From a virus, in the IMG/VR virus record IMGVR_UViG_3300029904_000005, positions 64,001-97,145 of that record: a stretch of DNA of 33,145 nt, one strand, 5' to 3'. Shown here piece after piece: positions 5,685-16,080 of the stretch (position 1 is the first letter of the stretch; the number at the start of each line of letters is the position of its first letter). The notes under the pieces were generated by a model. The model saw only the letters and a list, made by a program, of their open reading frames with translations. It made no database searches and had not been told where the DNA came from. The position numbers were made by a program, and so were the translations under genes.

Positions 5685-7199
5685 TTAGCCCTGTAGTACA
5701 GCAGGGATTAGTGACATAGTTCTTGTAGGGTCAAGCACACAGATACCAAGTGTAGCCATTCTGTGAATAACTGCTGAGTCCTCATCAAATGACATATAAG
5801 GATTACCCTTTTGTCCAGTGAAAGGATTTCTCAGACCCCACTGATAACCTCTGTATTCATTATCTCCCTTAATCCTACACTTGAAGATATTAGGCTGGTC
5901 CATAGTACCAATGTACATAATATCATATCTGTAAGACATAGCCACACCTCCAAGAGGATGAAGGATTTTATTTCTTACTGGGTCATCATAGAACGGGTCT
6001 ACATCAATCTTAACTCTCACCCCATTAGGTGCCTGATACTCTACAAATTGGAAACCAGCACTTAGTGAGTTCTTGTGTAGTTGAGAGTTAGTCTTCTGGA
6101 TAACTCCAATAGAGTTATTATCAAGAACAAACTGAGTCCAACCAGAGATTGTCTTCAGCACTTCCTTGTGGAATTGGATAGCACCTCTTTCACCTGTCTT
6201 AATTAAGAAGTATCTATCATTAAAGTCCAACTTAGAAGCAGATAGTTCATATAGTGCATCCTCAAGTAACTTCAGTGAGAATGTATTGTAATACATGGTG
6301 TTGGCAACTTCCATTTGCTCAAACAGACCAGCACCAGTCTTGATTACATTACCTGATTTACCAAAGTTCATGTACTCACCATTAGCATTTCTGTTAGAAG
6401 TACCAAATGCAAGTGCATTATTCTTATACTCAGAGAACTGACACTCTACTTCCCAATCTACATTGTGCATCCACATTGTAGCCACAGACTTAACAAGCTT
6501 GCCTCCCTCAGTTGCCTTAGTAATAGGCACACCTACAGCCAACTTCTTATTAAGCATATTACCCGGGACTTTGTGTTGGATTCTGATTGTAGACCACTCA
6601 TTTCTCATAGAAACAGGGCTTGTGAATCTTACATCACCAACCTTTCTTGACAGTTCCTTCTCTACAGGAGCAAAATCTATAGAGAATTTCTCACCTGCAA
6701 GCAGCCTCTCAGCAGGACATCCTGTAGTGTTACCTCCCATCAGTTCCACCTTGTAGACAGCATTAGTTCCTTCCATCCTTGCATCACCAAGGATTCTGAA
6801 AGGATATACTTGATTCAAGTGACCTACAATTACTTCACCATCAGCAAACCAATCCTCTGGGAACACCAAATAGAAAGGTGTAGTGCCTACACCCACATTA
6901 CCACTACCAGCAGTAACTACAGTTCCATTCTCATCTCTTGCCTCAACAAGAGGAATGTTTCTTCTTGAAGAACCAATTACATCCCAGTAATACTCACTGT
7001 CATCCTCAAATTCCCTTGAGGGGAATTGATTCAGGAATGTATCAAGGGTCTTTCCTCTATAGTAGGCAAGCAATTGAACCATCAGGTTTGTAGCCTTCTG
7101 TGGAGCTAACTGAAAGATAGAACCCAAGTGATTTTCCTTGGTAAGTCCCTTCCAGTGTTGGAAACCCACCATTTGAAATTTACCTAACTTTCCAGCCAT
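5685..7199 (-). CDS. Major capsid protein (HK97 fold, crAss type)
   Basis: 504 aa; crAss MCP-like sequence (WKGLTKENHLGSIF, IKTGAGLFEQME, DPTRTMSLIPA); follows the scaffold gene; strong terminator. Confidence 0.9.
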   Translation of the reverse strand: MAGKLGKFQMVGFQHWKGLTKENHLGSIFQLAPQKATNLMVQLLAYYRGKTLDTFLNQFPSREFEDDSEYYWDVIGSSRRNIPLVEARDENGTVVTAGSGNVGVGTTPFYLVFPEDWFADGEVIVGHLNQVYPFRILGDARMEGTNAVYKVELMGGNTTGCPAERLLAGEKFSIDFAPVEKELSRKVGDVRFTSPVSMRNEWSTIRIQHKVPGNMLNKKLAVGVPITKATEGGKLVKSVATMWMHNVDWEVECQFSEYKNNALAFGTSNRNANGEYMNFGKSGNVIKTGAGLFEQMEVANTMYYNTFSLKLLEDALYELSASKLDFNDRYFLIKTGERGAIQFHKEVLKTISGWTQFVLDNNSIGVIQKTNSQLHKNSLSAGFQFVEYQAPNGVRVKIDVDPFYDDPVRNKILHPLGGVAMSYRYDIMYIGTMDQPNIFKCRIKGDNEYRGYQWGLRNPFTGQKGNPYMSFDEDSAVIHRMATLGICVLDPTRTMSLIPAVLQG

Positions 7200-7216: not shown

Positions 7217-7759
7217 TTAGTTATCTTTATAATACCATAGAAATTTATGACTTCTGTGTCCCAAAGTACAATTCCTGCCTCTACAAGCCATAGAGATACT
7301 AACATGATTTATTCCTGTCTTCTCTTCAGCTTCTCTTGTACTGTGATACTCAGCTATAATATTTCCTTCCAAATCTTTTTGTATTACTCTTTTATTACTA
7401 TCAGAATTTATTCTACATTTCTTTTTCATTTCTGTTACAACTTCAGGAGTTAAGTGATATTCTATATCACCTCCAGTTGTTAAATTATATAATGAATACC
7501 CATTATCCCTAAAATGAGTAATAAAAATTCTTTCAAGTAAGTTTAGTGAGTCATAATCACAGTAGGCAAGAACTTTGTACTCCCAAACTTCTGGAGTATC
7601 CTTATATTTGTTTCTTACATTATTTATGTATCTTCCTCCATAGTAATACCTATTCTTATCTAAAAATTGGGATTTTCTAAGTGATAGGTTTCTTGTTTGT
7701 CCGATATATACCTTACCTGTGATTTTGTTCTTCCATAAGTAAATACCTGATTTATACAT
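7217..7759 (-). CDS. Free-standing GIY-YIG homing endonuclease with C-terminal NUMOD1-like HTH
   Basis: 'SGIYLWKNKITGKVYIGQT', conserved Arg, 'LE..FI' and 'YNLTTGG'; C-terminal 'VIQKDLEGNIIAEYHSTREAEEKTGI'; AT-rich relative to its neighbours. Confidence 0.9.
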   Translation of the reverse strand: MYKSGIYLWKNKITGKVYIGQTRNLSLRKSQFLDKNRYYYGGRYINNVRNKYKDTPEVWEYKVLAYCDYDSLNLLERIFITHFRDNGYSLYNLTTGGDIEYHLTPEVVTEMKKKCRINSDSNKRVIQKDLEGNIIAEYHSTREAEEKTGINHVSISMACRGRNCTLGHRSHKFLWYYKDN

Positions 7760-9078: not shown

Positions 9079-9708
9079 TTAGTCTTCTTTGAAGTAATTC
9101 CATAGCTTGAAGCCACCCTTATAGTCATCATCCTTGAACCAGAATATAACAGCAGACTCAATTATCTTCTGCTCTACTCCATCACCAAACCATGACTTAA
9201 ATAATTCACAGTAATCATGATACTGTGCATTAATAGCTACATATACATCAGCATGAGTTATAGTCTGTGGTATGATACCCCTATATCTCTCACATACTTC
9301 TTTGGCTTTAGTCATGTCAAACTTTTCTCCAACATACTTTCTGCCATTCTCAAAGTGATACATATTGGATACCAAGTATTTTGCATAAGAGTCATTGAAG
9401 TGCTCATTACCAGCAGTACTTTTACCCTTCATAGCTCTCATCATCTCATACATATCCCCTTCACTCATACCTTCTGACATTCTATTGAATCTATCAAAGA
9501 ATCTATGCTGACCCCTATTACCTGAGTGGAACATATCATCAAAGTCATCAGGGTAATTATGTCTTCTCATGTAGAAGTCCTCATACATTCTATCAGGTAT
9601 TGGATAATCCTCATCACCATGATGTCTCATATAATGACTTCTATCACCCTTGGACATAAACTCCTTGAACCTATCCATGAACTCCTGCTCACTCATATTC
9701 TTACCCAT
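9079..9708 (-). CDS. Hypothetical protein with Met/Arg/His/Asp-rich low-complexity N-half and helical C-domain
   Basis: Start moved to ATG 9708 because the track start (9786) lies inside a terminator hairpin; 'YMRHH..D' / 'YMRRH..PDD' repeats. Confidence 0.6.
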   Translation of the reverse strand: MGKNMSEQEFMDRFKEFMSKGDRSHYMRHHGDEDYPIPDRMYEDFYMRRHNYPDDFDDMFHSGNRGQHRFFDRFNRMSEGMSEGDMYEMMRAMKGKSTAGNEHFNDSYAKYLVSNMYHFENGRKYVGEKFDMTKAKEVCERYRGIIPQTITHADVYVAINAQYHDYCELFKSWFGDGVEQKIIESAVIFWFKDDDYKGGFKLWNYFKED

Positions 9709-9765
9709 ACCTTTATTTCTGGAGATTATAAAATAAAAAGTTAGGATTATGTTGCTAATAGTGAT

Positions 9766-9798
9766 AAAAAAAAAGGTAGCTGTCATTTAGCTACCTTA
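9766..9798 (-). terminator. Intrinsic terminator overlapping the upstream stop codon
   Basis: AAGGTAGCT-AAATGAC-AGCTACCTT followed by a T run. Confidence 0.7.
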
Positions 9799-10115
9799 TC
9801 ATGCTTATAGAATACATCTACAATCTTGTTATATATGTAAGTAATTAAGTAGGCATCTACTTCATCATTATCACTTTGAGGACTATATCCAATGAAGTCC
9901 CATATATTATTCTTTATATGTTCAGCCTCATGGACAATACTACTTCCTCTCTTGGAGTTCACAGCTACTAATGATGACCCATACTGAGATTTTGTTATAG
10001 CTCTTGGCTCTGGACCACCATCAAACAGGTGCTCTACTTCTTCCCACTTATCAAATATGATTATAGTTAATTTATAATCAAAGATGGGTATATTTATCTT
10101 CTTTTGTGTTACCAT
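9783..10115 (-). CDS. Small HExxH (zincin-like) protein
   Basis: 'IVHEAEHI' plus downstream 'NDEVDAY'; ATG 10115 preferred to TTG 10145. Confidence 0.5.
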   Translation of the reverse strand: MVTQKKINIPIFDYKLTIIIFDKWEEVEHLFDGGPEPRAITKSQYGSSLVAVNSKRGSSIVHEAEHIKNNIWDFIGYSPQSDNDEVDAYLITYIYNKIVDVFYKHDKVAK

Positions 10116-10163
10116 GACTTTTTCTCCTTTTAGCCATTTCAGCAAACTCTATTATGGATATTA

Positions 10164-10499
10164 TTAAGCAAGCTGTGATTTGAGCTTGCTTCGCAAGCTG
10201 TGATTATCTCTACTCTTCCTGACAAATTCATCTAAGTCCTTCTTATGCCAGCTTAATTCTTTAAAACCAATTTCATGCTTACCTTTAGGTAATTTACCTT
10301 CTCTCACATAATTATCAAAGGTTGCTCTACTTACATTCAGATATTTACAGGCAGCATATTTACTTAGTCTCTTCTCCTTGTCAGACAATTCCTTTAGTGT
10401 GTCAATTAACTTGACAGCCTCCTCTTCTGTTATATTTGAATTACCTGCATCTATATCATCCACTATCTTCATCAGCAGGTTTCTTATGATTCTTAACAT
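10164..10499 (-). CDS. Excisionase/AlpA-like HTH DNA-binding protein
   Basis: 'LSKYAACKYLNVSRATFDNYVREGKLPKG...SWHKKDLDEF'. Confidence 0.7.
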   Translation of the reverse strand: MLRIIRNLLMKIVDDIDAGNSNITEEEAVKLIDTLKELSDKEKRLSKYAACKYLNVSRATFDNYVREGKLPKGKHEIGFKELSWHKKDLDEFVRKSRDNHSLRSKLKSQLA

Positions 10500-10857
10500 A
10501 CAAATAAAGTATTATAAACAATGAAATACCTGCTACTATCATTTGCAGGCATAAGTATTCTAAGTCACTGATTGGTATCCCTATATAGCAGTCTATAATA
10601 TTTATCAACCATATAGCTGTCACATAATGCAGGAACATTCTGTGACAAGGACAGAATCTAAATACATAAAAGGAGAGATAGAGAAATATTAGAGTAAATA
10701 TTGATACTCCTCCTATATAACTCAGTATAGGAAGGTCTATACAAAAATAAGACAGAATTGAGTTGAGAAGAGCAACCAATGCAAGTATCATTGGAATGAC
10801 CTTTAACAGACCCAATGCTGTCTTATATAGTGTCTTACTTCTTAAGTTTTCCACCAC
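10456..10857 (-). CDS. Membrane protein with about 4 transmembrane helices
   Basis: Four hydrophobic stretches; start codon uncertain (GTG overlapping a micro-ORF). Confidence 0.6.
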   Translation of the reverse strand: MVENLRSKTLYKTALGLLKVIPMILALVALLNSILSYFCIDLPILSYIGGVSIFTLIFLYLSFYVFRFCPCHRMFLHYVTAIWLINIIDCYIGIPISDLEYLCLQMIVAGISLFIILYLYVKNHKKPADEDSG

Positions 10858-10933
10858 AACTATACCTTCTTTTATTCTTTGTGACCCCTGCCTTAGGAGT
10901 CAAAGGCTTTGCTCTACCAGTCTTTTTTGCCAT
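10835..10933 (-). CDS. 32-aa basic micro-protein MAKKTGRAKPLTPKAGVTKNKRRYSCGGKLKK
   Basis: Manual translation; ATG GCA start after an AT-rich leader; fills an intergenic gap in operon orientation. Confidence 0.55.
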   Translation of the reverse strand: MAKKTGRAKPLTPKAGVTKNKRRYSCGGKLKK

Positions 10934-10952
10934 AATAATCAAACTTTAATTG

Positions 10953-11015
10953 TTATTTACTCTTTTTGCCTTTTGTTGCTTTACCTTTACCTTTGCAACC
11001 ACACTTCTTTGCCAT
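10953..11015 (-). CDS. 20-aa Lys-rich micro-protein MAKKCGCKGKGKATKGKKSK
   Basis: Manual translation; ATG GCA start and TAA stop; fills the gap between adjacent genes. Confidence 0.5.
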   Translation of the reverse strand: MAKKCGCKGKGKATKGKKSK

Positions 11016-11034
11016 AAGTACAGTACTTTAATGG

Positions 11035-11463
11035 TTATACAATTTCTATAGTTATTTCTTCTCCTCTTGCAATAGCTTCCTTCATCATTTTAACTAGCCT
11101 CTCTTCATAAGGAGTTGAATTAAGCACTTTTCCTACTGCTTTATTCTCTCCCACAAGTATGCAGCCTGAGGAATCTTCAGCAGTATTACCCCTGTGAATC
11201 AAGATGCCAGTAAATGAAGGTACATCAAGCAATCTTGGTAATTCTCTTCCAAATTTAGGGGACATATTCACCACTACCTTATATGTACCAAAAGGTATGC
11301 AGGTCTCTCCATAAACCTTTACTTCACCATTGTCAAACTTTCCATTCTTATTCACATCCCTATTCTTGTCTTCAAGAGTATTAGAAAAGAATGAGCCATC
11401 AATATAAAGATTACCTATTGTATAGGTGTCCTTAAAATACTTTCTCTCAAGCTTTAGTTTCAT
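11035..11463 (-). CDS. DUF5675-like protein (L,D-transpeptidase-like His/Cys motif), candidate lysis enzyme
   Basis: 'NTLED', 'TCIPFGTY', 'GILIHRGNTAEDSSGCILVG'; adjacent to holin- and spanin-like genes. Confidence 0.7.
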   Translation of the reverse strand: MKLKLERKYFKDTYTIGNLYIDGSFFSNTLEDKNRDVNKNGKFDNGEVKVYGETCIPFGTYKVVVNMSPKFGRELPRLLDVPSFTGILIHRGNTAEDSSGCILVGENKAVGKVLNSTPYEERLVKMMKEAIARGEEITIEIV

Positions 11464-12542: not shown

Positions 12543-12563
12543 TGCTATAATCAAATAATTTAA

Positions 12564-12603
12564 AAGACATAAGAGATATTCTTATAAATATCTCTTATGT
12601 CTT
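12564..12603 (-). terminator. Perfect 17-bp inverted repeat, probable terminator
   Basis: AAGACATAAGAGATATT-6 nt-AATATCTCTTATGTCTT. Confidence 0.6.
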
Positions 12604-12612
12604 ACAATATAA

Positions 12613-13701
12613 TTATTCAGGATTATAAAAATCATCTACAGATAGATGTGACCCAGGCCCCTCTACTACAGGGGTAGCAAAATCAGTCCATCTTGCAAAA
12701 GCAAGACTATAATGGTCAATTGCATCTTCTACAGGAGAATATATATTAGCTTCTGAGCCTTGTACCCAAAGACCTGTTATAGTATTCTCATCTGATTTAT
12801 ACCATTTAAGAATCTTAGGACCTGCTGGATATGTTTCTAGAGAAACATTTGGCATAAATATCCTAGATACACCATTAGGACTAAGAGCATCAGTCTCTGC
12901 CACAGAGATAATTCTTCCAGCCATTGTTACCAAAGTAGTATCAAAGCCCTGAGGAGCTAGACAGCCTGGACTAGTTCCACCCCAACAAGCCGAACATGTT
13001 CTTGGAGTACCATAACTACCTTCTGCCTCAGCTGTAAAGTACCAGTTCTTATCATAAAGGTCCTTCTGGTACTGATGCAGTGTATAAATCTGTATTCTGT
13101 TTTCTGAGGCACTAAGTCTTTCTACTATTATTTCAATTACAGGAGAACCCTGATGAAATGCAGCATGTGCCAAATCATACTGTTTTCCTATAGCTGCATC
13201 TACTGTATTAAGAGTCAGCTTTGCCAGAACATTCTGCTTGAGTGGATTAAGAACCCACTTATCCAAATAAGGTTTAGCATCACTTGCTATCTCACATGTA
13301 TAATTACAGTAGTTTTCACCTCCAAATGGAGACCAGTTTACTACTATATTTGATACACCATCATGAGGGTCATTATACATTCTTAGTCTGTTAACTAATT
13401 CATTAAGAGAAGAAGTATCAAGACCTCCTGTTTCTACATTGTTTTTATATACAGTCATATTAAAAGCAGTAGCATCCTCTTCTGTAGGATAGGAAGCCTT
13501 CGCATCTGTAGGAGCCAAGTTCAGTATAAATCTATATGCCCTATACTGCTGTACAGTGACATTCACAGTTTTACTACCACTTTTAAAGGTAATAACTCCT
13601 TCTCTATTATTACCTATATTTTCTTTAGCTGTTATAGTTACAGTATTATTATTTCCATCCCCAGTCTGAGGACTTACTGTTATCCAATCTGGTATTGCCA
13701 T
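12613..13701 (-). CDS. Fibre/adhesin protein beginning with the C-terminal half of a BACON domain, followed by an unknown domain
   Basis: 'PDWITVSPQTGDG...VTITAKEN...REGVITF...VTVQQ'. Confidence 0.7.
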   Translation of the reverse strand: MAIPDWITVSPQTGDGNNNTVTITAKENIGNNREGVITFKSGSKTVNVTVQQYRAYRFILNLAPTDAKASYPTEEDATAFNMTVYKNNVETGGLDTSSLNELVNRLRMYNDPHDGVSNIVVNWSPFGGENYCNYTCEIASDAKPYLDKWVLNPLKQNVLAKLTLNTVDAAIGKQYDLAHAAFHQGSPVIEIIVERLSASENRIQIYTLHQYQKDLYDKNWYFTAEAEGSYGTPRTCSACWGGTSPGCLAPQGFDTTLVTMAGRIISVAETDALSPNGVSRIFMPNVSLETYPAGPKILKWYKSDENTITGLWVQGSEANIYSPVEDAIDHYSLAFARWTDFATPVVEGPGSHLSVDDFYNPE

Positions 13702-13713
13702 ATTAAATAAAAA

Positions 13714-13746
13714 ATTTAAAAAGGGAGGAGAGTTTTCCCCTCCCTA
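13714..13746 (-). terminator. Intrinsic terminator or attenuator between BACON genes
   Basis: AGGGAGGGGA-AAAC-TCTCCTCCCT followed by TTT. Confidence 0.6.
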
Positions 13747-13756
13747 TATTTTTATA

Positions 13757-15361
13757 TTAAGATAAAATCCAACTATCATTTGATGTAATAGTCAGAGTCT
13801 TAGACTCACCTCCTGCTAAGAGGGTCAGACTATCAGGAGTTATAATCAGGATACTGTCATCTGCCTGTTGAGTAAATTCAATAGTACCACTAGTTGACTT
13901 ACCTCCCTCTCCTGTAATACTCAAAGTAATTGAGTAAGGGCCTCTCTGGTCAGAAGATGTATTCTCAGACACAGTTACTGTATTAAAGTCCCCATCAGTA
14001 GTAAAGCCTTCCAGAGGAGATACTTCCTCTATACTTATAGTAAATTGTACTGGACTGGTTCCAGAAGACTCAGTTCTTTGAGCACCTGAAGTATAACTTA
14101 CAGTCTGAGCAGGTTGAGCAATTTCATTAAAGTCATACTCCTTTCCTTCTACAGGAACTGAGATACTCTCAGATACACCATATGTTACTTCTCCATATGT
14201 AGCAGCATTGGCCTGCTGATAAATAGGAACATGTTCCTCAGCTGTCTTACCACCTTCTCCTGTAGCAGTAATATCAAGAGTTCCTACCTGAGTTCTTGAT
14301 TTGACTGTAGTTGCAAGATTAGCCCCAGTTACTGCATCTCCATAAGATATACTAACTTCTCCAGCTCTTTCAGAACCTGAGGTAAATGTGACAGTTTGTG
14401 TACCTGTAGTACCATTTATCTGAGATACTGAGCCTCCCGATGCAGGAATTTCAGTACCTATACCAAGCTGGATGGTCACTTCACCATAAGATGCCTCATT
14501 GGCAGACTGATAAACATCCCAGGATGAATTTGCGGTCTTGCCGTTCAGAGAAATAGTAGCCTGAACAGTTGCAATCTTGGTCCTTTCCTTTACAGTAGTT
14601 CCCAGAGAATCAACCTCAAACTGTCCTGTTTCTCTGTCTATGGATACTCCCATAGGCTGGGAAGTAAAGCCGTATGATATAGTAGCCCCGTCTGTAACAG
14701 TTCCTCCCCCAGTAGTCTTTCCGTTCCATCCCCAAGTCTGTCTATATGTAGGAGCATGAGGTATGGCTGTGCCTCCCTTTGCGGGAATATCTGCATATTT
14801 CAACCCCATAATAGGTATAATTTCCGAATAGGTCTTAACTCCCGCAGCCTGAGACCAGGAAATCTCCGCTTCTACAGAATCTTCCGCATTACTGTTGTCT
14901 ATCTTAATGGTCTTGCCCGTAAGAGCATTCTCTGTTTTATTTTCAGGTATACTGACAATAATCTCAAATTCATACTCAGCACTTGCACCAGGGTCTCCTG
15001 TTATATTAATAGTCTTATTGCCATCCCAACCTTCCTGCTCTTCTCCATTAATCTTTAGTGAGTCTACAGTAGCTGTAATATCACTCAAAATTACTTTTAG
15101 AGCTGCACTATTAGATGTACCTTGTAGAGTTACTTGCTGTCCTGTTGCAGGTACATTCAGCATTCTTTCACTTGTTATAGTGATATGTTCAGCTTTTCCA
15201 GTCTGCTCAACAGTAGTGGAATCTGAGCCTCCTCTAACAGCTTTTCCTGTAATTGTACCAGTTCTTTTTACTCTTCCTGTAAAAGACTGTGCTGTTACTT
15301 GTACAGTATCATTTCCTGTACCTGAACTTTTACTTAAACTAATCCATGTAGGTTTTGCCAT
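13757..15361 (-). CDS. Tandem BACON-like/Ig repeat fibre protein
   Basis: Repeated 'IPA.GG', 'TTVK.RT', 'YQ.AN.A.YGEVT' and 'TGEGGK' units; begins and ends with half-BACON segments. Confidence 0.75.
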   Translation of the reverse strand: MAKPTWISLSKSSGTGNDTVQVTAQSFTGRVKRTGTITGKAVRGGSDSTTVEQTGKAEHITITSERMLNVPATGQQVTLQGTSNSAALKVILSDITATVDSLKINGEEQEGWDGNKTINITGDPGASAEYEFEIIVSIPENKTENALTGKTIKIDNSNAEDSVEAEISWSQAAGVKTYSEIIPIMGLKYADIPAKGGTAIPHAPTYRQTWGWNGKTTGGGTVTDGATISYGFTSQPMGVSIDRETGQFEVDSLGTTVKERTKIATVQATISLNGKTANSSWDVYQSANEASYGEVTIQLGIGTEIPASGGSVSQINGTTGTQTVTFTSGSERAGEVSISYGDAVTGANLATTVKSRTQVGTLDITATGEGGKTAEEHVPIYQQANAATYGEVTYGVSESISVPVEGKEYDFNEIAQPAQTVSYTSGAQRTESSGTSPVQFTISIEEVSPLEGFTTDGDFNTVTVSENTSSDQRGPYSITLSITGEGGKSTSGTIEFTQQADDSILIITPDSLTLLAGGESKTLTITSNDSWILS

Positions 15362-15370
15362 ATTTTTTTT

Positions 15371-15640
15371 TTAAATTGTCCAACTTTCTTCAGATGCTAC
15401 TGTCACTGTCTTAGATTCCCCTCCAGCAAGGAATATAAGTTCAGTAGGAGTAACTTCAAAACCCTCTATAGGTAATCCATCCTCAACTGTCAAAGTCCAA
15501 GAGTCATCCTCTCCAGCTTCTACATTAAGGGTCTTTTCTCCGCCAGTATCAGCAAAACTGAGAACACTGGGAACCAACTTGAAATTTCCTACAGGAGGAA
15601 TACCTATATGAAGGAGTAATAGATTTCTTATTACACTCAT
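15371..15640 (-). CDS. Small adaptor with two tandem BACON N-terminal halves
   Basis: 'FKLVPSVLSFADTGGEKTLNV...SWTL' and 'FEVTPTELIFLAGGESKTVTV...SWTI'. Confidence 0.6.
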   Translation of the reverse strand: MSVIRNLLLLHIGIPPVGNFKLVPSVLSFADTGGEKTLNVEAGEDDSWTLTVEDGLPIEGFEVTPTELIFLAGGESKTVTVASEESWTI

Positions 15641-16080
15641 TTAAAAATCCCCCATACAGCTAGATTATTCATTACACTAATAAACACTGTACAATTAGCC
15701 TCAACTACAGGAGCCTCTCCATTATTCCATTGTATTTCAGGAGCACCTGTAATATTATGGGCAGTACTTCCTATTTTAATATAATAAATCTCCTCAGAAG
15801 TAGTAGATGGATTGGACTGTATCTGATAGTCACTACTAAGTGTGGGTACTTCATGTACAATATTTCCAGTAAATACTCTCCATTTTCCAGTAATGGAGTC
15901 TACGGTATTAGATGAATCAAACTTGTAAGTTCTTTTATCCTCTGCACAATAGCCAAGATGTCCATCATCTACATCATTATCACGTGTAGCCTTTAGGTCT
16001 GCCAATGTACTATAACTATCCCTTTCAAAGTTTGGTTTCTTACCAAGATAACTAAAATTGTCTGCAATAAATAAGCTCAT
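15637..16080 (-). CDS. Short tail-fibre connector protein
   Basis: N-terminal 'IADNFSYLGKKPNFERD...YCAEDKRTYKF...GKWR' and C-terminal 'IQWNNGEAPVVEAN' modules resemble Bacteroides phage fibre modules. Confidence 0.5.
   Translation of the reverse strand: MSLFIADNFSYLGKKPNFERDSYSTLADLKATRDNDVDDGHLGYCAEDKRTYKFDSSNTVDSITGKWRVFTGNIVHEVPTLSSDYQIQSNPSTTSEEIYYIKIGSTAHNITGAPEIQWNNGEAPVVEANCTVFISVMNNLAVWGIFK

Follow-up and report, generated by a model that had tools for sequence, protein, structure and literature searches.

The window analysed here, a stretch of 33,145 nucleotides (nt) from a virus (positions 64,001 to 97,145 of IMG/VR record IMGVR_UViG_3300029904_000005), contains three consecutive genes in which BACON domains are divided between neighbouring proteins. 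The C-terminal first part of such a domain is here termed a plug and the N-terminal second part a socket; the genes and features described below are on the minus strand unless otherwise stated. The first gene (15371..15640) encodes an initiator of 89 amino acids (aa), which consists of a short N-terminal segment and two plugs, has no socket and is represented in 9 homolog clusters. Its plug 1 (residues 19-52, 15485..15586; matched by the plug hidden Markov model, or HMM, at 19-51) corresponds to the only plug in the initiators of relatives, which are 49-59 aa long, and plug 2 (residues 60-89, 15374..15463; HMM match at 61-89) is of the shaft type. The second gene (13757..15361) encodes a 534-aa shaft, with an N-terminal socket (residues 1-56, 15194..15361; PF13004 model positions 8-47), four complete immunoglobulin (Ig)-like domains and a C-terminal plug (residues 501-534, 13760..13861) with the conserved end ...SNDSWxLS. 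The third (12613..13701) encodes a 362-aa tip, composed of a socket (residues 1-55) and a compact body, with no plug. In the open reading frames (ORFs), coordinates and end sequences of these three genes the locus is as stated in an earlier note on this DNA, which had read it as a daisy-chain fibre whose subunits complete each other's Ig fold.

The initiator and shaft genes are separated by an A-rich 9-nt spacer (junction 1, 15362..15370) that is in frame and preceded by only a single TAA, a point overlooked in the earlier note. Junction 2, between shaft and tip, is 55 nt long (13702-13756), out of frame and contains a terminator-like hairpin of 10 pairs followed by a T-run (13722..13745), all as originally described. 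In a close strain (run X9) junction 1 is one nucleotide shorter (8 nt) and junction 2 two longer (57 nt), each change being found in one contig, at depth 52, inside homopolymer runs. Directly after the tip gene, a 28-nt inverted repeat (12553..12614, not assigned to a strand) likely marks the end of the fibre cluster. Upstream lies a gene for a 147-aa protein with the C-terminus ...AVWGIFK (15637..16080), here termed the adaptor. A six-frame scan of the entire 97-kb genome detected two sockets and three plugs, all within the three genes, and the next-best scores were only 4.1 and 11.0 bits.

Both downstream proteins, of 534 and 362 aa, match PF13004 (gathering cut-off 25 bits) from model position 8-9 and from their own residue 3-4 onwards, with scores above the cut-off for the tip (47.5 bits, E 1.7e-12) and under it for the shaft (20.9 bits); the initiator has no Pfam match. 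The expectation that BACON matches would be truncated at complementary coordinates is thus borne out for both downstream starts, the shaft at a sub-threshold score, and fails for the 89-aa protein. The tip has all four residues conserved in BACON domains, W, N, R and Q (PMC6949934; this and the other articles given by PMC number are cited from parts of their text), as W6, N28, R33 and Q52, and the shaft keeps W6, R33 and Q53, with T28 replacing the N. A socket profile built from 18 N-termini (A3) matches only residues 42-91 of 3ZMR_A, a solved BACON-bearing chain (E 7e-6). The top structural match of tip model residues 1-55 among 48,161 chains is 3ZMR_B, at residues 74-129 (54 aligned, root-mean-square deviation 2.4, with a low Z score of 4.9). 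A complete BACON beta-sandwich is not contained in a single chain here: its first part ends another gene.

The AlphaFold2 model of the shaft (52 homologs; predicted template modelling score, pTM, 0.47) contains the four Ig-like domains at a predicted local distance difference test score (pLDDT) of about 90. Its socket has four strands (pLDDT 77-87), and its plug (60-71) is mostly unpaired, with little secondary structure. The shaft has no sequence relative in the PDB, and the structural matches of its model are tandem Ig or cadherin chains (Z < 9), several of the latter aligning shaft residue 1 to about residue 34-42 of their first cadherin domain, as would follow from the absence of a domain's first part. 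The tip model is confident (pLDDT 83, pTM 0.86, socket 74-88). For the tip body there was no Foldseek match at E<=0.001, no VIA match at Z>=5 (with the whole tip model as query), no PHROG, and only Atlas matches below 0.9. The body (12613-13536) belongs to a small family (P0250-P0280 and P0367) with conserved WSP, AAFHQGSP and C-terminal FY.P motifs, and the full-length tip relatives P0250-P0280 likewise begin with a socket.

Among the best 120 of 3249 shaft homologs, 84 have both a socket and a plug, 4 a plug only, 31 a socket only and 1 neither; in 120 of 1165 longer homologs the corresponding numbers are 32, 21, 29 and 38. No internal plug-socket junction fusing a shaft to an initiator or tip was found in these 240 homologs, as judged with profiles that are narrow and may miss diverged plugs or fusions, and the internal plug-socket pairs that do occur are ordinary whole domains. 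The same split ends persist down to about 40% identity, and the same chain is present in cr127_1 (Crevaviridae), cr111_1 (Steigviridae) and csAssE-Sib, with an epsilon crassvirus among the three groups. The claim that the split point, between two conserved Trp residues, is itself conserved is therefore upheld by those 84 two-ended homologs and by its recurrence in three crassvirus groups.

The positions at which the two ends stop are also closely constrained. The 150 proteins listed as tip matches contain 810 internal socket-like stretches, 798 of which have an upstream Trp within 16 residues, at a spacing of 8 in 610/798. Among 184 distinct plug ends, 143 stop 3 residues past the Trp (115/119 in two-ended proteins). 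Of the distinct sockets (168), 125 carry the Trp as residue 6, and in every one of these 125 residue 2 is Ala, Pro or Thr. The initiator Met is removed when one of these residues is second, and with this removal the two ends would contribute 3+4 residues, which is the loop length of intact domains. The exact register of both ends appears to be under selection, which is best explained if plug and socket meet. Covariation between plug and socket within the shaft was less informative (159 distinct rows, effective number 43), since the top inter-segment pairs, T50-I506 and V20-I506, lie about 4 standard deviations over the mean and are indistinguishable from shared descent.

Gene arrangement was compared in 150 loci, comprising the window and 149 fetched by an alignment-based search of viral contigs, a single-sequence search having returned none; tblastn searches of a phage collection yielded no cultured phages carrying the system. 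Of these loci, 91 have a two-ended gene of 500-600 aa and fall into 16 clusters, one of 65 loci; the other 59, with more distant repeat proteins and other layouts, are excluded from the counts. The spacers upstream of the shaft are in frames 0, 1 and 2 in 39, 12 and 22 cases, and the downstream spacers in 22, 23 and 20. The gene that follows the shaft has a socket in 65/91 loci and none in 20, and is lost at a contig edge in 6. In 17 long-flank loci, the shaft is last, following socket-only genes or without any, and lysis-type genes come after it in the shaft-last loci inspected; in G002-G004, three of 7 complete genomes searched, there are exactly three socket matches, the shaft being the last of them. 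In csAssE-Sib, a solitary gene for a 218-aa protein with socket and plug lies amid replication genes on the opposite strand, 44 kb from a cluster of plug, socket-plus-plug and socket genes.

Several features of the related loci were recorded in addition. The lone csAssE-Sib gene (L152:4989-5645) is annotated as glycosyl hydrolase family 5, and similar proteins of cr127_1 and cr111_1 as lipocalin-like, labels that look like mis-annotation via the BACON part. In the same virus, an annotated diversity-generating retroelement (L154:1-3817), with VR, TR and reverse transcriptase, lies upstream of the plug-socket cluster, at a distance of about 1 kb. What is probably a second type of socket, in which a PW.DG-like N-terminal motif precedes the second domain part, follows plug-ending genes and evades the socket profile (L002:7673-7966, L153:2460-2759, L011:4801-10878, P0136 and P0146). 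The spacer before the shaft of L121 (about 5930-5990) is a tandem 12-nt repeat of at least 4 copies, and a related fibre region on a contig in a Phocaeicola dorei genome bin (L146) has short, broken ORFs under table 11, possibly owing to another genetic code.

It is highly probable, from the sequence evidence, that plugs and sockets join in trans at some stoichiometry. The C-terminal plug, of about 34 residues, would fold into the N-terminal socket, of about 55, of another molecule. The rebuilt domain would be interrupted in its backbone at one place only, the loop that separates the two conserved Trp residues. The adaptor would hold the initiator at the end of an upstream fibre, the initiator would offer its plugs, shafts would add through their sockets, each exposing a fresh plug, and the plug-less tip would cap the chain. 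Downstream of the shaft gene, the hairpin may keep tips rarer than shafts and thereby influence length. The resulting filament would be long and beaded, with adhesion as its probable role. The more specific proposal, trans joining with a repeating 534-aa shaft, is favoured by a modest degree. A still broader reading is conceivable and distinctly more tentative, namely that cut BACON domains act as a universal, chaperone-free snap connector in at least three crassvirus groups, forming pilus-like virion filaments nucleated by initiators, of variable length through shaft self-polymerisation, and with double-plug branching here; tips would be swapped even from distant genes, and the terminator would set the ratio of shaft to tip.

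The placement of the adaptor is suggested by linkage: a gene ending in AVWGxF precedes 85/86 small plug-only genes, so that the initiator likely docks on the 147-aa protein with its N-terminus held there. A second plug-ending protein, found in L003, resembles crAss001 gp22 at its N-terminus (E 1e-5 pairwise) and carries an Ig domain like gp29 (E 2e-13). As gp22 docks on the tail hub of crAss001 (PMC10172136), some chains may hang on the tail. A 538-aa protein has a weakly gp24-like start (E 4e-4 pairwise). A 551-aa protein was considered as gp21-like at its start and rejected, no alignment having been found, and it has no sequence relative in the PDB. The initiators at L001:6778-6990, L002:6656-6961 and L153:1362-1742 have a different N-terminal module, a repeated I..NG..(I/V)W, before the plug.

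The case for a repeating shaft comes chiefly from plugs that precede dissimilar partners. In two loci with identical shaft plugs (33/33), the downstream sockets share just 20/54 residues, and one of them matches the shaft's own socket at 23-25/56. A plug that tolerates both of these divergent sockets would have little reason to refuse the socket of its own shaft, and such promiscuity favours, by a slight margin, the shaft self-polymerisation that had been proposed for this locus. The swappable tips of that proposal are supported by comparison, in that tips of about 80 to 1100 aa have been exchanged behind shafts of 93-97% identity (61/65 loci). In L080, L082 and L084 there are three plugs, and the sole socket within 13.6 kb, the distance covered by the count rather than the whole contig, is the shaft's own. 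A hairpin of <= -18 kcal/mol follows the shaft in 16/16 clusters, compared with 18/142 other ORFs, 1/24 plug-only genes and 2/16 socket-only genes, and a hairpin in this position would favour shaft over tip. In L003, L081, L082 and L084 a second terminator-like hairpin is present just upstream of the shaft, leaving the gene flanked by two hairpins.

A number of observations weigh against this interpretation. The pre-shaft hairpins of those four loci complicate the stoichiometry argument, as does the fact that many of the 16 post-shaft hairpins share descent and most stand at a cluster end. The 13.6-kb limit on the socket count in L080, L082 and L084 leaves room for distant partners of their plugs. 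The commonest layout is initiator, shaft and tip in that order (60/91 loci), and initiator plugs end 8-9 residues past the Trp, compared with 3 for shaft plugs. A two-ended shaft would also be open to runaway polymerisation or ring closure; the best monomer model shows no closure within the shaft, which a monomer model cannot exclude. The sockets are modelled fairly confidently without a partner, and a plug HMM match precedes just 353/810 internal socket-like stretches at the threshold used, which marks the plug profile as narrow and liable to overlook plugs or fusions. Possession of both ends was the criterion by which the 91 shaft loci were chosen, and one cluster supplies 65 of them. A socket-only 202-aa gene in G001 (L151:4218-4826) is about 17 kb from the fibre cluster and from any plug gene found, with no adjoining plug gene, which suits action in trans and equally a self-sufficient socket. 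No socket match was obtained in crAss001.

The most substantial alternative retains joining in trans and supposes that each plug prefers one socket, so that a short fixed chain of initiator, one shaft and tip would result, with plugs 1 and 2 of the initiator perhaps taking different partners. This arrangement, which is rather unlikely, would avoid runaway polymerisation and agrees with the commonest gene order, with the differing ends of initiator and shaft plugs, and with the single heteromeric joint of the lactococcal phage Tuc2009 described below. It accounts poorly for identical plugs before very different sockets, for three plugs against two sockets in this genome, and for the three loci where only the shaft's own socket is nearby; plug 2 also resembles the shaft plug (15/28 aligned residues identical), and what binds one may bind the other. 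It is improbable that the halves are not complementary at all, the sockets folding alone or homodimerising and the plugs adding strands to the sheet of another virion protein. The partnerless socket models (pLDDT 74-88), the lone socket gene of G001 and a crAss-BACON profile lacking the first 10 positions, read as flexible in PMC6949934, are in keeping with such independence, whereas the summed ends equal the intact loop, plugs and sockets co-occur in shaft loci, and ordinary proteins supply the upstream Trp in cis in 798/810 socket-like stretches.

Two further explanations would do without a joint between separate proteins. Stop-codon readthrough, frameshifting, ribosome hopping or RNA splicing could in principle fuse the genes in cis into a single-chain BACON domain, and junction 1 of the window, in frame behind one TAA and within an A-run, offers a possible site. 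Judged from the sequences, cis fusion of the window genes is nevertheless very unlikely, because spacers occur in all frames, 20/91 shafts have no downstream socket gene, the X9 junctions have shifted to 8 nt and 57 nt, and the socket-plus-plug gene of csAssE-Sib is alone on the opposite strand and far from its cluster. An RNA run (X20) contributed 7 short pieces only, none crossing either junction, and so bears on neither splicing nor expression. That a single long BACON-repeat gene has recently decayed or been mis-assembled is scarcely credible: plug 2 is damaged in some homologs and the shaft of L120 is frameshifted, whereas the same ends are kept to about 40% identity in Steigviridae, Crevaviridae and an epsilon crassvirus, and a contig from a separate study (run X7) covers the fibre stretch in one gap-free piece, which confirms the DNA independently and rules out assembly error. 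Joining of plug and socket in trans is the explanation retained in what follows.

Branching, which had been proposed from the two plugs of the 89-aa protein, is possible and is the weakest part of that first reading. The double plug exists; it is found in 1/86 small plug genes, in this lineage only, and plug 2 is cut short or mutated in 3/9 homolog clusters, both of which weaken the case for a branched fibre. The layout of L003 suggests that the double plug may have arisen by a deletion between an initiator and the subsequent plug-ending gene.

A Pfam scan of the 33 window proteins identifies the region as crassvirus structural, with matches to major capsid, auxiliary capsid, ring and tail-hub families (PF23898, PF25650, PF25710, PF25702, PF25724 and PF25711). 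Portal and terminase were identified by PHROGs, the portal sharing 72% identity with crAss001 gp20; the capsid, ring and tail-hub genes and this crAss-type portal place the virus in the Crassvirales. The three split-BACON genes sit between portal and capsid, an interval occupied in crAss001 by the fibre genes gp21-gp29 (PMC10172136). Most of the sequencing runs that contain the window DNA are recorded as metagenomes of bird or chicken gut. Elsewhere in the window, a GIY-YIG/NUMOD1 endonuclease gene (7217-7759) is inserted immediately before the major capsid gene, and the interval between lysis-type and capsid genes (9079-11463) encodes a DUF7841 protein with a Met/His/Arg-rich N-terminal half, an HTH_17 protein and a DUF5675 protein. 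GC skew flips sign at about 31000, where the coding strand switches.

Crassvirus tail fibres have been resolved poorly by cryo-electron microscopy (PMC10172136), and BACON-bearing proteins have been linked to phage adhesion on gut epithelium (PMC13370021). If the proposed joint is real, many "single-BACON" phage proteins would be modular filament subunits and not free-standing adhesins, and the way in which they are annotated and expressed would have to change. Tip exchange would be explained without in-frame recombination, crassviruses would carry an analogue of a pilus that needs no chaperone, and the natural plug-socket pair, available in several variants, could serve as a protein connector.

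The donor of chaperone-usher pili is a single strand that extends the subunit at its N-terminus, and their assembly requires both chaperone and usher. The analogy with donor-strand complementation drawn in the earlier note holds in that a neighbour would complete an incomplete Ig fold, within a similar plan of base, repeating shaft and tip. It does not extend to the donor, which in the phage comprises the opening 34 or so residues of a domain and sits at the C-terminus, and each phage shaft has four complete domains besides. Pfam matched no chaperone or usher family among the 33 window proteins, the only ones scanned. The type V pili of Bacteroidota, the probable host phylum, also form head-to-tail polymers by a strand exchange that involves the C-terminus, and there the exchange is protease-mediated and acts on secreted pilins (PMC13655056). 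The phage domain is instead BACON, and its sockets have no leader to cleave, since they start at residue 2 and mostly have Trp at position 6.

The tandem repeats of PF13004, PF19190 and crAss-BACON domains belong to the same family and structural-gene neighbourhood and include multi-ORF BACON clusters (PMC6949934). That article treats the domains as whole, the strings "split" and "truncat" occurring 0 times in its main text, whereas here the domain is divided between genes. The available parts of PMC10136315 and PMC11054128 do not mention a split, and no description of BACON domains split across genes was found in the literature searched, supplements excluded (those of PMC6949934 and PMC13370021 might show truncations). 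The chain-like fibres of phages A1002, GP4 and VP1 are built of many small subunits through beta-sheet contacts, with dimers placed on a rope protein by sheet augmentation (PMC13730344); here the subunits themselves would form the chain.

The closest parallel is offered by Lactococcus phage Tuc2009, in which a C-terminal BppU hairpin of about 25 residues completes the sheet of BppA to give a composite, titin Ig-like domain (PMC4742702). As proposed here, the C-terminal extension of one virion protein completes the fold of another, and the Tuc2009 joint attaches a carbohydrate-binding accessory protein. The assertion that nothing of the kind had been described thus stands for BACON, for which no report was found in the literature searched, and must be withdrawn for fold completion between phage proteins in general. 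The Tuc2009 joint differs in being a single heteromeric one, in which a beta-hairpin enters the C-terminal domain of its partner; neither a two-ended protein nor a polymer is described in the parts of that article cited. In the crassvirus loci, a standard cut through the BACON domain is reused by initiators, shafts and tips, and the likeness to Tuc2009 is one of layout. What is known from Tuc2009 is fold complementation at one joint, and what is new here is the proposed reuse of a split BACON domain as a connector.

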